From an uncultured bacterium (GTDB lineage: Bacteria; Abyssobacteria; SURF-5): a DNA stretch of 39,764 bases. The DNA lies in NCBI GenBank assembly GCA_964607485.1, contig CAZSKP010000041.1, forward strand, positions 1-39,764, given 5' to 3'. Below are positions 30,001-39,000 of the stretch, one piece after another. Every line of letters begins with the position of its first letter. Position 1 is the stretch's first letter. A program made the position numbers.

Positions 30001-33000
30001 GAACGTGGACACTTTGTTGGTCAGGATATTGTACTTGCTCATCTTGGTCACGTCGTCGTGGCAGCTTGCGCAGGTGTATGTGACATGCAGGGCCGAGACG
30101 CTCGATTCGGGATTCCACGGAGCCGCTATCTTGTGCTCGCCGTGACAGTCGGCGCATGTGGGAGCATCCACTATGCCTTCCTTGAACGCCCTGCCGTGAA
30201 AGCTTCTGCTGTAAGCGTGGTATTCGTCCAGATGACATCTGCCGCACGTGCGGGGCTGATGCGGTTTCAGGTCGGCCTCGCCGTTGCCCTGAATGTCGTG
30301 CACGCCATGGCAATCGGTGCACACGGCCGCCAGCGTCACCAGCCCATCTTTGAAGAGCGCCTTTCCATGCACGCTCTGCTCGTACTCCCTGTACGGCTGT
30401 TCGGCGTGGATGTTATGTTTCAGGACCATCTGCATGTTATCGTGGCAGACGGCGCAGGTGCGCGGGATATTCGCGCGATAAATAGTGGATTCCGGGTCGG
30501 ACGCGGGCCTGATATTATGCTTGCCGTGACATGTCGGGCAGGTGGCGACGTCGGTATCGCCCCTCTCGAGCGAGGCCCGGCCGTGGACGCTGGTCTTGTA
30601 CTGCTGCATGGGGGTGAAGTTCGGGGCGCCGTCGGGATTGCCCTTGTAATGGCAGGACGTGCAGTTGACATCCTTGAGCGTTTTCAGATGAGGAACTTTC
30701 TCATTGGGCGTCGGAGTTTCACTGGCGTCCACATGACAGTCGGTGCACTTGAGAGAGGCGTGTATGGACTGGGAGAAAACCTTCGGGTCGACATAGATCA
30801 GTTGGCTGCGGGCCGTCGCTTCGTCGCCGTGACAGGCGAGGCACGCGTCGTTACCCTGCTGTGTCGCATCCTGGGCCCAGCCCGGAGCGCCGCCGGTCGC
30901 GAGCAAGGCCGCCGCAATTCCAAACGCCACGCAGGTCAGTTTTCCGGTCCTATCTTTCATGAGTCGTAACAAGCCGGCGCCTAAGCCCCGGCTCCCTTTT
31001 CGGCTTCCGTTTTCGATTCCCCGACTACCCCTCCGAGCGACGCGGGAAGCAGGATGGAGAAGACCGTCCCTTCGTTCAGCACGCTCTTAACAGAAATCGA
31101 GCCGCCGTGTCTTTCGATAATCGAGAGCGCCACGGCCAGCCCCAGGCCAATCCCGCTGTCGTCTTCCTTCGTGGTGAAGAACGGCTCGAAGATGTGCCGA
31201 GCCGTTTCATCGTCCATCCCGACGCCGTTGTCCTGAACAGAAATTTCGACCGCCTTCGCGGAGGGCAGATATTTGCAGGCGATCTTCAGGATACCCTCGT
31301 CCACTATGGCGTCGCATCCATTTATCAGTATCGCGAGCAGCACCTGTTTGATTTTTTGCGAATCGCAATTTATCGCGGGTATGCCGTCGCCGAGTTGCAG
31401 TTGCAGTTCTATGCCCCTGAGGGTAATCAGGTGGTCTATCAGCAGCGTGGATTCGCGGACGATATTGCAGATGTCGTTAGGCGAAAGGACGAGGTCGGAC
31501 TGGCGCGAGAACTGGAGCAGGTTCTTCACAATCTCGCCGCATCGCAGGGCTTCGCTCATCATCATGTTAATGATTTCTTTGCTCTTCCCGTAGCCGTTCT
31601 CGGAGAACGTGTTGTTGTCCATTCGCTTCATCAGAAGCTTCGCGTAGGCGACGATGCCGGCCAGCGGATTGTTGAGCTCGTGCGCGACAACAGCCGCGAG
31701 CCGCCCGACCGAGGCCATCTTCTCCGCCTGCAGGATCAGCTCGTTCGCCTTCTGCAGTTCCTGCGTCTTGTCCGCCACACGGTCTTCGAGGCTTTTCGTC
31801 CACTCGGTGATTTCATCCTGGGCCTTCTTGAGGTCGCGCGTCATGCTGTTGAAGGAGCTGGCGAGAAGCCCCAGCTCATCCGAAGACTTCGTATCGATGA
31901 CGTAATCCATGTCGCCCATCGCGATGCGCTTCGTGCCGGTTATGAGTTTCTTGACCGGGCCGTAGATCATCATCCAGACGAATCCCGCCGACACAATCGA
32001 AACGGCAATCATGATGACGAGCAGATTCATGACGATGTTTCTCTGATATTCGGCTATGCTTTCGTCCACCTTGGCGAGCGAGAGGTTGATGTCGAACACG
32101 CCCAGAACTTTCTTGGATTCCGGATGCACGTGGCAGGGGGCCGTGTAACAGTCCGGCTCGTTTTCGATCGGTTGAATGAGGCCGAGCAAGCGCTCGCCGC
32201 GTCCGATCCTGAATATCCTGGCCCGGTCGGGACGGGAGAGTTTCGTCAGCGGCTGTTCGCGCGTATGGCAGGCGTAGCATGCTTCGGCCTTCTTATCTAC
32301 GTACGTGTTCAACTCGTGTTCGTCGGTCGAAAATGTGATCTTGCCCTCTTTGTTGAGGATTCGTATCCTTCTTATGCCCGGCTCGTCGCCCAACTGGTTT
32401 ATCATGTGGTAGAGCTCGTCCCGGCGGTTCTTGAGCATCGCCAGTCTGGTGCTTCTCTTCACGATGTCGCCCACTCCTTGAGCGCTGGTCAACACCAGTC
32501 CTTCGAGGTGTTTGCGGCTGTGTTCGACGTTGATGAAACCGAACACGCCGAAGATGACCACCACGCTGCCCACCACGCAGATGATAAGCTTGATGGTGAG
32601 GCTGCCCGATATGCTGAACATTCTCTTGACGAGATTCATCCTTTTGCCTTATCCGGGGAATACCGTCTCGCGTAACCTGCGCATTTTTGGCGGGGTGGTT
32701 ACAAAGAGGGTCTCACATCTGTTGATTTCGACTATTGTTATGAGGTCCAATCCCGCCAACAATTTTACTAAATTTATCCTGTGCGGTCAAGCAACCCCTG
32801 GGGTGACCCTCTCGATCGTCTCCCGAAACGGTTCCCGAACATTCAATAAGGACCTTCCCAGCCGAGAGAATTATCGAGTCAACAGTTCCCGGCTGCCCGT
32901 CCCGACATCGTGTTGAGGAACAAGATACCTGAGAGCTTCGGCGGACTCTTCCCTTTCTTTCTCCTCAGGAAACACGGGCAGATACTTAACGGCGGCTCCG

Positions 33001-36000: not shown

Positions 36001-39000
36001 GCCTGCTCGTTCACGGCCACAACCTCTCCGTCCAGGGGAAAAGCCATGTCGAGGATTTTCCCCTTTCGGCTGAGGGTCCAGCCTTTCGCTCCCTGCTTGA
36101 CGTTCTCGCCCACGCTCGGCAGCGTCACCGAGGTCGGCCGGCCGAACAGCTTGCTGGCAAAGTCGTCGATTCCGACCAGCGCCGTGCCCGACTCCTGCAC
36201 CGCCACCCACGCGTGGCCGGGATGATAATGGAGTGAACCCGGCAGAGAGTAGCCCTCCACTCGGGGGATGGCCGGGGCGGAGGCTTCCAGCATCGGTCCT
36301 TCCGGAGCCGGCCTCAGAAGAATTCTTGCCCTCACGAATTCGGCGAGGCTGCTCGAACCGACCAGCACCGCGAGCGTCAGGCCCGTGAGAATAAGGAACG
36401 CCAGCCCCAGCATTGCGAATGGTAAAACAATGGGAATCATTTCGCCCTCTCCTTATTGGGGTGCCTTACAGCCAGGACATTGGATTTACCATTCTCACTG
36501 TTTCACCGGTTCGACCATGAAGATGCGACTCGCGAGCTCGCGCCAGTCGGCAGCTTTCAACTGGTCGGCCAGACCCTCTTCCGGCAGGCCGCCGTCTTGA
36601 AACACCGGGCCCAGCCTGCCGCTGAACATGGACCTGAGCTCCGTCGCGGATTCTTCCATCCACTTCGAGGCGACGGAACCGCGAAGGAGATTGCGGAGAT
36701 TTCGCTTCAGGTCCTTCGTCTTGACCATCACGAGCCAGCCTCGGCCATACGGCTCCTTCGAGAGAAGCTCGGGGGTGTGTGCCGCCAGCTCGTTCACCGC
36801 AATCACCTCGCCGTCCAACGGGAACACCATGTCGAGGTCTTTCCCGCCACGACTGAGAGTCCATCCCTTTTCGCCCTGTCTGAACCGCTCGCCCAGTCTC
36901 GGCAGTGCGACCGAGCTGGGTTGACCGAACAGTTTGGCGGTGAAGTCGTCGACCCCGATGAGGGCCGTGCCCGACTCCTGCACCGCCACCCACGCATGAC
37001 CCTGATGGTAATGCAGCGACTTCGGCAGGGCGTATCCTTCGACGCGGGCCGTGGCGTTGCCAAGCTCGGGCAGGATTGCAACCGTGGGGGCGCGGGCCAC
37101 CGTCGGGTCGGCCAGCGCGGCGCTTCCTAGAATCGGCCCCTCCACCGCCGCCTTCGAGAGAAACCTCTTCTTGATGAACTCCGAAAGGTAGCCGATTCCA
37201 ATGAATACGGCGAACGTTAAAACTGCCAGGATGAGGGGCATGCCCAATTCCCTCCTTTGTCCTTTGCCGACCGCTCTCGGTTGCGGACCCTCGCCATTTT
37301 CTCCTCCTTGCACGTAATTCCGCCGCCTATATTAGGCAATTTACCTGCCAAATTCGGAGCGCGATGGCCCGATATTGTAACTCATTGTCAAACCATATGT
37401 TACAAATGCACCGACCAAACCCCGAACACCTGCTGCGATTTCCTGCATTTGTTGCGTTTATCATCACATTGCAGAACCTTGTCATTCACAAAGACTTAGT
37501 GTGATGCGTTTCGCAATACCACATATTGCAATAGTCAACAGGTGCGCGGCGGGGTCTCTTCGGGGCAAATAGAGATTGAAAACGGAACACTTGCGCGGAC
37601 TTTAAGAGAGAGGAAGGCGAATATGCAGCGAATTTATGCGAGCACGTATCAGGCTGTTGACAACTTCTTGGAAAAACGTTTCGTGACGGCTTTCTGCGTC
37701 TCGGCGAGACTCATGTCGATTACCGTTCCACATGCCGTGGCGACGACGATTATCAGGCAGAAAATGATATACCGATTGCCAATCCCCAGTCCGCTCAACA
37801 GTTCGTAGGCCGGTTTCAGCATGGGGGCATGAAAAAGAAAAATACCGAGCGAGTGTCTTCCCAAAAGGTCGAGACCGTTCATCACAAGAGAAGATAGACG
37901 TTGAACCACTCGCCATAAAATCAAGAAGAGGGATATTCCGATGACCGTGTCGGAGATGGCGGTCGTCGGTTTTGAACAATGCAACAGGATGCCGCAGAGA
38001 TAGAGCGGGATCGCAAGCCTGTACAAAAGGCTAATCCAATTCTCGCTCCTCCTCCTGATATGGAAGGCAAACGTTATGCCGAACACAAACTCGGCCAACC
38101 TGCACCCGAAGAAAGCGCCAAATGCGAAGTAGGGGTGAAATCGGTCGATGTAGTAAATTCCGGCGAGCCTGAAGAAGACGGTGACCAAAACGGAACAGAG
38201 AAAGATTTGTGACGGGCTCCAGCGGTCGAAGAGTCTGATAAGGAACGGGAAAACCAGGTAAAACTGAAACAGCAGCCCGATATACCAGAGCGGGCCGTTC
38301 AGCCCGTAAAAGAATTCCGGAAAGAAGACATGCAGACCAAAGACCTGCAACACCATCGCCAGTGCAGAGGTCGCGGGAACGTATGTGTAATAGAGATTTG
38401 TGCCCTGCAAGACCATGAAGACAACGAAAAGGCTGAGCCAGTACATGGGCAGAATTCTCTCCGCCCGTCGGAGGTACCACTGACGCAGCTTGATTCCCTT
38501 CTTAAAGAAAGAAAGGGTCAGGACCAAACCGCTCGCTATTATGAAAAGGTGGACACCCTGGTATCCGGAGCCGCCAATGATGCTCATGACCGCAATGACC
38601 ATGTCTTTCAGACTATGGAGTGGCGGGATCAGTTCGGAGATGCTCGGACGGAACTGTGGATAGACGAGGCTAAAATATGTGTCGAAGAATTGCCGGGTCA
38701 AAGGGAGGAGTCCCATCGTATGGAAGGCGACAATCAGCAGAATGGCCACGCCTTTGACGGCATTGATTCTCCTGTCCATCCCGGTATCTTAGCGTAATAC
38801 GCCCGAAGTAGGCAAACCTTGAGGAATTCGCTTAACGTCGCGACGTCCCGCTCTGCCCGAATGCGCCGTCCCGGCAATCCTTCCCGAGCTATTCCGAGTC
38901 TTCCGACAGCCCCGGCAGTTCGAGCTTGGCGGCTTCGGGCGAGGAAAATTCGGCGCTTGTTATGTGAGGCGTGATGAAGATGACCAGTTCGCGCTTGTCG

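Follow-up and report, generated by a model that had tools for sequence, protein, structure and literature searches.

The analysed window, the whole 39,764-nucleotide contig CAZSKP010000041.1 (assembly GCA_964607485.1) of an uncultured Abyssobacteria bacterium, carries on its minus strand three tandem genes encoding proteins of the GcvH fold, followed by genes for an iron-sulfur (Fe-S) protein, an NrfD-family membrane protein and a sensor histidine kinase with haem motifs. H1 (36495..37241, 248 aa) has an N-terminal transmembrane (TM) helix and a C-terminal helical extension, its QDGG loop being encoded at 36588-36599, and shares its features with the tandem duplicate H2 (35706..36440, 244 aa, 65% identical). 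H3 (34955..35668, 237 aa), with Ser at the lipoyl-lysine site and a TMQDGA motif, represents a second paralogue class, in a clade shared with TM-receiver-H fusions. Downstream lie the genes for an HmcB/HybA-like 4x[4Fe-4S] protein (34126..34932, 268 aa; NF045715, E 3.5e-76, below cut-off), an HmcC/HybB-like protein of the NrfD family (32871..34073, 400 aa; NF045714, E 1.1e-96, below cut-off) and the membrane kinase (30981..32639, 552 aa), composed of a periplasmic Cache-like domain, HAMP, HisKA and HATPase. Orthologues of the sigma-54 activator and the archaemetzincin found at related loci are encoded on another contig (C5). The three tandem membrane-anchored GcvH-fold genes with their Fe-S, NrfD and kinase companions, as reported in the preliminary description, were all confirmed.

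Eight bases behind the kinase gene we found a gene for a decahaem c cytochrome (29566..30972, 10 CxxCH) with a signal-like N-terminus and a C-terminal TM anchor, and beyond it, on the same strand, qrcABCD together with an octahaem cytochrome gene (22747..29335; QrcA, B and D above and QrcC just below the NCBIfam cut-offs). The orthologue of the decahaem cytochrome sits between kinase and regulator in three further loci (L004, L006 and L007), and within this lineage the cytochrome belongs to the module; in one relative (G004) the qrcABCD/octahaem block separates the decahaem cytochrome from the sigma-54 regulator. Of the six-gene module proposed earlier, the conserved module holds and the limit of six genes does not, as a decahaem cytochrome and an inserted Qrc cluster are added here.

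Loss of the lipoyl lysine in the H-fold proteins

The barrel-sandwich fold of the H protein is present (rmsd 1.2-1.5 Å over about 125 residues against GcvH), and in this the proteins resemble GcvH, GcvH-L and LbpA (PF01597/TIGR00527), but the lipoyl lysine and its ESVK context are absent. The site is occupied by Gly in H1 (Gly133) and H2 and by Ser in H3, and the lysine is retained in only 4 of 151 aligned family members. Most members have also lost the acidic residue of ESVK (Glu in 13/151), while three H proteins of a Cys class keep E-x-x-K at the canonical site. One position downstream, 110/151 members have a Lys (58) or an Arg (52); the hairpin of H3 is without any Lys. Compared with GcvH, these proteins add a membrane anchor and a helical extension of ~55 residues with DGG, for which no fold match was listed (the extension was not folded separately), and H1-H3 score below every GcvH cut-off in NCBIfam. 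Charge distribution places the N-terminus of H1 outside and the C-terminus inside. An HmcD-like anchor helix (NF045712) matched 44 of the 103 members of one family alignment (A4; best E 1.3e-8, with the top member listed scoring below the family cut-off), and on this profile evidence one H subfamily is predicted to be anchored by such a helix; within the window no HmcD match was found in H1 or H3 at E 0.5, nor in H2 at E 0.001. A soluble, Cys-rich H class has a TM in 1 of 28 members.

Searches for GcvP and GcvT gave no match in this genome (97.5% complete, positive controls detected), which has a LipA gene and a single ligase-family gene, BirA-like by context. Unlike LbpA and GcvH-L, the H loci show no sHdr/sLpl or sirtuin/macrodomain genes among their conserved neighbours. 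The lost lysine, the N-terminal anchor, the C-terminal extension and the lack of GcvP/GcvT, all noted before, were seen again, and the absence of the lysine, of GcvP/GcvT and of relay neighbours supports the earlier view that the proteins belong neither to glycine cleavage nor to a lipoate/sulfur relay. The H-fold proteins probably carry no lipoate and serve as regulatory adaptors. One peptide pattern retrieved 413 confirmed stretches from GTDB genomes, the best 80 of which bear ten or more phylum labels; in one phylum 401 genomes were sampled, and 56 of these matched at E 1e-30 or better. A search for longer fused H forms yielded one protein, which counts as weak evidence.

Comparison with Hmc and related electron-transfer modules

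The order of an HmcB-like, tail-anchored Fe-S protein and an HmcC-like NrfD protein is shared with Desulfovibrio Hmc (HmcA-F) and with Nhc, HybAB and Qrc, and a multihaem cytochrome partner and the predicted HmcD-like helix of one H subfamily add to the likeness with Hmc. Both subunits, however, fall below the Hmc equivalog cut-offs of their best matches (NF045715, NF045714), the Fe-S protein of this branch lacks a Tat signal, a decahaem cytochrome takes the place of the 16-haem HmcA, and HmcE and HmcF are missing from the module, the HmcE/F-like genes of this genome lying with a separate paralogous cluster on contig C39. Set against the available part of a description of Hmc (bioRxiv 10.1101/2023.11.02.564894), the GcvH-fold domains, the dihaem kinase and the archaemetzincin are extras of the present module.

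The Fe-S protein starts 11 residues before its first Cys and ends in a C-terminal TM tail followed by W-x3-RR; in about half of the family loci this subunit carries a Tat signal, and in five loci it is fused to NrfD. A Tat-bearing partner was sought in the fetched DNA of 30 loci with a Tat-less Fe-S protein, and a Tat-like ORF was present in one (QrcB, L005), three misclassified loci and one shadow ORF having been dropped from the count. The pair resembles the signal-less, C-tailed ferredoxin and HybB-like protein that ride on a Tat [FeFe] hydrogenase, with the signal-less Fe-S gene upstream of a HybB-like gene, but here there is no conserved Tat-bearing catalytic partner. With neither a Tat signal nor an evident carrier, the assembly of the Fe-S protein is unexplained. 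The NrfD protein has 10 TM helices with both termini inside (K/R bias), and an inverted, cytoplasm-facing NrfD in the Tat-less branch was rejected, as the loop K/R bias is equal in both branches save for one loop. Multihaem cytochromes were found in the fetched DNA of 25/80 loci, the single-H type of Acidobacteriota and Planctomycetota being mostly without, and at many loci 4-, 10- or 13-haem cytochromes adjoin NrfD.

Signalling genes that travel with the H-fold proteins

The kinase has two haem motifs, CxxCH (C121-H125) and C-x4-CH-x-H (C164-H172), invariant among the aligned kinases. The putative periplasmic Cache domain with its c-haem motif, TM and HAMP recalls the sCache_heme sensors (PF21563/PF11845; Geobacter GSU0582, Pseudomonas CHH receptor), which have one haem motif where this kinase has two. 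PF21563 matched 23/26 kinases at E up to 0.5 (best 1.4e-8); on this kinase the match is below the Pfam threshold and spans the second haem motif, and Atlas feature matches (0.93-0.94) led to clusters with 15-37% PF21563 carriers. A single-sequence AlphaFold model of the sensor domain had low confidence (pLDDT 41). A characterised signalling member of the c-haem Cache family binds NO (bioRxiv 10.64898/2026.02.01.703092); of the redox sensing assumed earlier, the signalling part stands, and redox is a candidate signal. HisKA-HATPase with the conserved His and a REC-AAA(GAFTGA)-HTH activator, together with a -24/-12 promoter and an upstream palindrome, were all found here and are features of a sigma-54 two-component system of the NtrB/NtrC type. 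The archaemetzincin (M54; NF033823 above cut-off) has HExxHxxGxxH and a Cys4 zinc site; the full motif occurs in 46 of 58 labelled ORFs and the profile matches 2x7m at 2.7e-42. Regulator and M54 orthologues are present in the relatives that have the H operon and were not found in one that lacks it (G005).

These genes stay together with and without NrfD. In an independent sample anchored on M54 (24 loci, each 14 kb or longer), H and the activator each occur in 23/24 and NrfD in 20/24. The loci surveyed throughout this work were chosen by similarity and include near relatives. Three NrfD-less loci keep kinase, M54, activator and an H with DGG; enhancer-like sites precede H in all three (2-3 sites in two, weak in one), H stands in front of Nuo-like or antiporter-like genes, and the strict sigma-54 motif is found in 1/4 NrfD-less loci. 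Some complex I-like operons that lack NrfD likewise begin with the kinase-activator-protease-H cassette.

A C-terminal DG motif is present in 138/140 non-receiver H proteins and in 0/8 receiver fusions, with one further fusion, P0135, keeping QDGG as an exception. Among the non-structural motifs of the H proteins DGG is the best conserved, and the model places it in a loop of low confidence; H3 reads DGA where H1 and H2 read DGG. Seventeen small membrane ORFs, spread over 15 loci, have the motif on its own and are linked to the H family by shared motif and gene position (profile-profile comparison was weak: probability 33%, E 0.00046, motif only); the ESM Atlas returned only leads below 0.9 for the small peptide. 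Receiver-H fusions without a DNA-binding domain come after FeS-NrfD-cytochrome-kinase in 9/14 fetched loci, and one follows dsrMKJOP in this genome, as reported before. Its co-occurrence with kinase, activator and protease where NrfD is missing, and its fusion to receivers, bear out the assignment of H to a conserved signalling module.

A sigma-54 promoter motif and a probable enhancer in front of the operon

Upstream of H1 we identified a sigma-54 (-24/-12) promoter element (37336..37350, minus strand) and, further upstream, conserved blocks (37450..37540, minus strand) that are a probable enhancer for a sigma-54 activator, with palindromes of the consensus TGTTGA-N5-TCAACA at 37524-37540 and 37450-37466 and a weaker copy at 37502-37518. 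GGCA-N6-TTGC is invariant in 7/7 aligned upstream regions, and the enhancer blocks are conserved in the same seven. Both elements recur at loci from different phyla. The motif has its sole match in the window here, a result that alone is not significant (16/100 shuffles); in its strict form it occurs in 15/74 upstream windows with estimated gene starts versus 82/4952 background windows, and a matrix built from 16 distant loci ranked this promoter first among the genome's 624 sigma-54-like sites. At least one enhancer site is present in 15 of the 16 distant loci and at least two in 12 (shuffles: mean 0.08, maximum 1), a count that is partly circular because the consensus was drawn by eye from the same loci. 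We infer that the activator encoded on C5 binds this enhancer.

Scans of this and five other genomes revealed no further regulon of the activator beyond the operon of the module itself. The six exact palindromes away from the module in the other five genomes all lie inside coding sequence and lack the sigma-54 motif, and the next matrix matches in this genome, a dnaK operon and a response regulator, were not convincing. Scans for sigma-70 promoters and terminators remained at chance level. Since the H/Fe-S/NrfD genes are preceded by their own sigma-54 promoter and enhancer, they are the probable output operon of the kinase and seem to be controlled by the two-component pair instead of only feeding a signal into it; the signalling module proposed earlier is retained, a role as input only is less likely.

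Discussion

We propose, with a probability of about one half, that the kinase, NtrC-type activator, archaemetzincin and H-fold proteins form a portable sigma-54 cassette that regulates respiratory membrane complexes; its H-fold proteins would be cytoplasmic adaptors and not carriers, and here it would control an Hmc-like module of Fe-S protein, NrfD and multihaem cytochrome. The dihaem Cache sensor would read a periplasmic redox or gas signal and phosphorylate the activator, which, on the enhancer, would drive the promoter of H1-H2-H3-FeS-NrfD. Fe-S protein and NrfD would move electrons between quinone and periplasmic cytochromes, and the H-fold proteins, tethered at the cytoplasmic face, may link the complex to its regulators, giving feedback or controlling activity; the exposed DGG loop would be a likely contact or processing site for protease or activator. 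Genes, folds, loss of the lysine, conservation of promoter and enhancer, co-occurrence and fusions were observed directly; the interactions, all of them, and the signal are proposals. A parallel is BccR-CbcBA of Geobacter, where, at low redox potential, a sigma-54 response regulator turns on the neighbouring electron-transfer operon, which encodes a quinone:cytochrome module of the inner membrane; its CbcB is a dihaem b cytochrome and not NrfD/Fe-S, and the available part of its description mentions neither an H-fold protein nor a protease, with 'glycine' occurring 0 times (bioRxiv 10.1101/2021.04.15.440034).

That Fe-S protein and NrfD have no net respiratory role and report the quinone redox state to the kinase through H adaptors or haems, self-induction only tuning sensitivity, seems unlikely to us: the module has no catalytic subunit, multihaem cytochromes were found in only 25 of the 80 loci and the kinase gene often directly follows NrfD, but such a sensor would have no output, as no other activator target was found, the same cassette precedes bona fide complex I-like genes, and 4-, 10- or 13-haem cytochromes stand beside NrfD at many loci. 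We similarly doubt that the H proteins serve the membrane complex as structural subunits or as chaperones of its assembly (an enlarged HmcD) without signalling, leaving regulation to the two-component pair and maturation to the protease, given the receiver-H fusions, the soluble Cys-rich class and the occurrence of H beside unrelated complexes, for which a single common interface is not possible.

Least probable is a remaining role of H as a covalent carrier, with the lysine one position downstream as the modified residue or with cleavage behind DGG by the archaemetzincin, which would leave a C-terminal Gly-Gly like that of ThiS/MoaD-type carriers. The frequent Lys or Arg at this position, the E-x-x-K kept in three Cys-class proteins, the LipA gene and the strongly conserved DGG in a low-confidence loop would suit this idea, but Arg is nearly as frequent there as Lys, the H3 hairpin has no Lys, the acidic residue is mostly lost, H3 reads DGA and no E1/ThiF-like gene is among the conserved neighbour clusters listed. 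In the lipoyl domain of pyruvate dehydrogenase, moreover, a shift of the lysine by one position abolishes lipoylation.

Within the regulatory cassette that we favour, we tentatively suggest that two exclusive wirings of H, a lipoyl-carrier fold put to new use in signalling, either phospho-receiver-fused or DGG-bearing, might constitute a new post-translational control circuit of respiratory complexes, the archaemetzincin or activator reading DGG by docking or cleavage and the lone DGG peptides competing. If true, the archaemetzincin would gain a defined substrate, HmcD would be a docking helix, and an export route of a new kind would be implied for the signal-less Fe-S domain.

Our literature searches found no description of this module, the papers retrieved covering other subjects or single parts, and it is real and widespread and apparently an undescribed control unit. 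The public names 'glycine cleavage system H' and 'lipoate-binding protein' are wrong for the family and mislead metabolic reconstructions of many anaerobes. Testable leads concern the substrates of archaemetzincins, the role of HmcD and the H fold as an output domain of receivers, which our searches did not turn up. The cassette is attached to Hmc-like, Dsr, Qrc and complex I-like machinery and may therefore regulate anaerobic electron flow quite generally.

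Organisation and conservation of the module

On the minus strand the window encodes three PF01597-matching proteins with the GcvH fold, H1 (36495-37241), H2 (35706-36440) and H3 (34955-35668), then an Fe-S protein closest to HmcB/HybA (34126-34932) and an NrfD-family protein closest to HmcC/HybB (32871-34073), both with best matches below cut-off, and a sensor kinase (30981-32639). Successive genes from H1 to NrfD are separated by 22-54 bases; the kinase gene lies 231 bases after the NrfD-family gene, and a decahaem cytochrome gene follows it after 8 bases, then qrcABCD and an octahaem cytochrome. 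Among 80 loci, BLAST clusters placed NrfD in 74, Fe-S in 67, kinase in 61, the NtrC-type sigma-54 activator in 57 and the archaemetzincin (M54) in 54. When we counted only loci of 19 kb or more (n = 34), using profiles built from this set of 80 loci, which are similarity-selected rather than independent, we found NrfD in 34, the haem kinase in 33 and Fe-S, activator and M54 in 32 each; the two loci without a separate Fe-S gene have it fused to NrfD. The module in the window is real, intact and conserved; a preliminary description had already called it a conserved module of six genes. That description also held that the activator and M54 genes had moved to contig C5, which agrees with their 81-83% and 75-79% identity, respectively, to module genes of three loci (L004, L006, L007), where both come after the decahaem cytochrome. 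The order in another genome (G004) is H-H-H-FeS-NrfD-kinase-cytochrome-qrcABCD-octahaem-activator, stopping 99 bases short of the contig end; together with these orthologues it indicates that the window order is common to relatives and that the last two genes were relocated here. A further genome (G005, 97% complete) had no close H1 match and no activator or M54 orthologue.

Related genes occur elsewhere in this genome. A second archaemetzincin (40% identical; C16:76115-82109) lies a few kb from two decahaem cytochrome paralogues and a cytochrome b-like gene. Contig C39 (L002:3526-13454) has another HmcB/HmcC-like pair without Tat signal (50% and 47% identity, respectively, to the window pair), accompanied by HmcE- and HmcF/DsrK-like genes, three receivers that stand alone, a PAS kinase and a divergent sigma-54 activator. 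The locus has no H gene, and the frame with the HmcC-like gene runs on into a haem-motif region (weak HmcA match). In several Acidobacteriota loci (L050, L056, L067), a cytoplasmic block like group 3b [NiFe] hydrogenase was read from sequence upstream of the module. Within the window, consecutive minus-strand genes (17397-22463) encode an arginine dihydrolase-like protein, a nickel-pincer ornithine cyclodeaminase (TIGR00300 above cut-off) and PutA, a predicted arginine-to-glutamate route like ArgZ/PutA in two separate genes. Also on this strand are a NapC/NrfH-like multihaem cytochrome (15849-17363), an octahaem c554-like cytochrome that also matches a UshA-like selenoprotein model (22747-23835), and four ORFs of 219-352 aa without Pfam or NCBIfam match (5023-7162, 13484-14542), close to a PEGA Ser/Thr kinase and an NHL-repeat protein.

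H proteins without the lipoyl lysine

Despite their PF01597 match, H1-H3 score far below the NCBIfam GcvH cut-offs and do not belong to GcvH, nor to LbpA as far as the accessible part of PMC10332631 describes it. All three have a single hydrophobic helix at the N-terminus with basic residues behind it, an arrangement that under the positive-inside rule would place the H domain in the cytoplasm. Where solved H-proteins have the lipoyl lysine, the alignment shows Gly for H1 and Ser for H3, and H2 likewise carries Gly. The predicted H1 structure (mean pLDDT 85) matches GcvH at an rmsd of 1.2-1.5 Å and adds helices 188-206 and 230-240 flanking a low-confidence loop. Neither GcvP nor GcvT was found in this 97.5% complete genome. 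The tandem membrane-anchored GcvH-fold proteins of the preliminary description, lysine-less, with a C-terminal helical extension and without GcvP/GcvT, are borne out. LipA is encoded in the genome, as are ordinary lipoyl or biotinyl domains that keep their Lys; lipoate metabolism therefore exists apart from H1-H3. Directly after lipA stands a gene for a free-standing lipoyl-domain protein of 79 aa, whose DKA motif is canonical (C1:200949-202100, minus strand).

A peptide-pattern scan of GTDB genomes (one pattern) confirmed 413 of 418 stretches, with at least 10 phylum labels among the best 80 loci; a profile search retrieved 1042 representatives with E no higher than 1e-30, an unspecified share of which may be ordinary GcvH. 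Lysine occupies the lipoyl column in 4/151 proteins, three of them with E-x-x-K in one Cys-rich clade, and in 8 of the 245 scorable members of a second set of 266. Lys or Arg one position downstream, already remarked as common, occurs in 110/151. We regard a role of H as covalent carrier as improbable. Among 148 cores long enough to class, a TM helix is present in 110/120 non-Cys-class H versus 1/28 Cys-rich H. A quick tree with SH-aLRT support only grouped H1/H2 with HmcD-anchored and single-copy H (97) and H3 with TM-receiver-H fusions (96).

H1 and H2 (35706-37241) are mutual nearest relatives in this tree and show 88-92% DNA identity over about 180 bases, which suggests gene conversion or recent re-duplication. 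Soluble H variants (P0217, P0238, P0242; L010, L039, L134, L148, L199) carry at least one N-terminal Cys-rich repeat (C-x-W-M...C...C-xx-C-x-[FY]-D), possibly an Fe-S or Zn sensor domain, which no NCBIfam model matched among the proteins scanned. Further fusions (P0140, P0202, P0121, P0124) include H joined via a TM segment to a periplasmic multihaem cytochrome, H in tandem (H-H), and a GlcD/GlcF-like FAD/Fe-S oxidoreductase that carries three Lys-less H domains.

Fe-S/NrfD pair and probable dihaem kinase

With two loci reassigned and one with masked bases left out, HmcD-anchored H was present at 30/30 loci with Tat-bearing Fe-S versus 0/30 with Tat-less Fe-S; W-x2-4-RR follows the tail in 31/32 Tat-less and 0/32 Tat-bearing proteins. 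NrfD loop charge is alike in both branches except in one loop, and at five loci (L036:10719-12683, L046, L047, L052, L070) Tat-less Fe-S is fused to NrfD in one reading frame (573-655 aa), which together favour an Fe-S domain facing the periplasm. In the accessible text of bioRxiv 10.1101/2023.11.02.564894, where the words "GcvH", "glycine cleavage" and "archaemetzincin" are absent, a signal-less C-tail ferredoxin hitchhikes on a Tat hydrogenase. Unlike that system, module loci show no conserved Tat carrier for Tat-less Fe-S; QrcB is a candidate in the window's lineage only.

Kinases picked because they carry a CxxCH (n = 68) all keep the two Cys of a second haem motif (68/68); 66 of them have His170 and His172, and 65 have Met68. 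In several Acidobacteriota this second motif takes the canonical CxxCH form. Matches to PF21563, the family of c-haem Cache sensors, occur in 23/26 kinases at E up to 0.5 and span the second motif in the window kinase, which is likely a dihaem Cache sensor. The preliminary description favoured redox sensing: the conserved regulatory module stands, while for the signal a gas is as open as redox, since a signalling sCache_heme binds NO in the accessible part of Deshpande et al. (bioRxiv 10.64898/2026.02.01.703092). The words "diheme", "NrfD" and "glycine cleavage" are absent from that text, as are "GcvH" and "NrfD" from its companion preprint. The receiver-GcvH fusion earlier reported with dsrMKJOP was found after that operon on contig C34 (L001:8569-11912), behind a protein-kinase-like gene and a dihaem kinase paralogue (31% identical, both haem motifs retained); it has neither C-terminal extension nor DGG, the motif in that extension.

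Promoter and probable enhancer sites

A -24/-12 element precedes H1 (37336-37350, minus strand); it is unremarkable taken alone, and is invariant in 7/7 aligned upstream regions, with upstream palindromes alongside. Sigma-54 motifs precede 15/74 module starts (estimated) versus 82/4952 in the background. TGTTGA-N5-TCAACA, a consensus derived by eye from loci of this kind, was found within 3 mismatches at 15 of 16 distant loci picked for having a sigma-54 motif, and two or more times in 12 (mean in shuffles, 0.08). With a matrix trained on those distant loci alone, the window promoter ranks first of 624 candidates in this genome, the next-ranked being unconvincing; in five other genomes all six exact palindromes outside the module lie within genes. 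The conserved element and probable enhancer, with no convincing other sites, suggest that the module's own activator has H-FeS-NrfD as its output operon and may have no other target.

Proposed constant partners of H

In one H subfamily the N-terminal helix matches HmcD (44/103 members of an alignment in which this type is over-represented; best E of 1.3e-8), which ties H to the complex. Of 151 proteins, 140 keep D216, 142 keep G217 and 135 keep G218 (DGG; low-confidence loop in the H1 model). Accompanied only by a membrane helix, DGG recurs inside the module in 17 small ORFs, which are spread over 15 loci (L012, L013, L016, L020, L021, L024, L029, L031, L039, L045, L049, L051, L069, L076, L078), of about 65-105 aa; their sequences close with G-[LFV]-T-[MLI]-ADGG and then a charged tail. 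They had no family match, and none was found in this genome. Receiver-H fusions lack DGG in the first set (0/8) and, by inspection, at nine further loci (0/18), P0135 being an exception; those nine loci have FeS-NrfD-13-haem cytochrome-kinase, then receiver-H genes only, with no M54 within the 20 kb fetched. A metagenome sample anchored on M54 (the best 80 of at least 598 loci) includes 24 long loci, 23 of them with H and 20 with NrfD. Three NrfD-less loci have a non-haem kinase, M54, the activator and a Cys-rich H with DGG ahead of genes like NuoE/F/G/H or antiporters, with enhancer-like sites upstream of H and a sigma-54 motif in one. In genome G122 (completeness not given), H, H, kinase, activator and M54 adjoin cytochrome b/c genes, and no match to the window NrfD was found. 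The HmcD helix, DGG, receiver fusions and NrfD-less loci together suggest that it is the regulators that stay with H, and that the complex differs from locus to locus. A role as structural or assembly subunits appears unlikely, and so, to the same degree, does a pure quinone sensor.

Fold matches of the H1 model include 1y8n and 3crk, the PDK-L2 complex, in which a lipoyl fold docks on a GHKL kinase. This gives a precedent for such docking, which requires lipoate there. The module is not a member of Hmc; as far as the accessible source describes BccR-CbcBA, it would work likewise, on an Hmc-like core. No description of it was found in the literature, most subscription papers lying outside coverage, and the archaemetzincin passages accessible in PMC13325395 concern another family than the module's M54. 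The most likely reading, to which we give about even odds (roughly 0.5), is that the module is a portable sigma-54 regulatory cassette for the control of respiratory membrane complexes, in which H-folds lacking lipoate would serve as adaptors on the cytoplasmic side.
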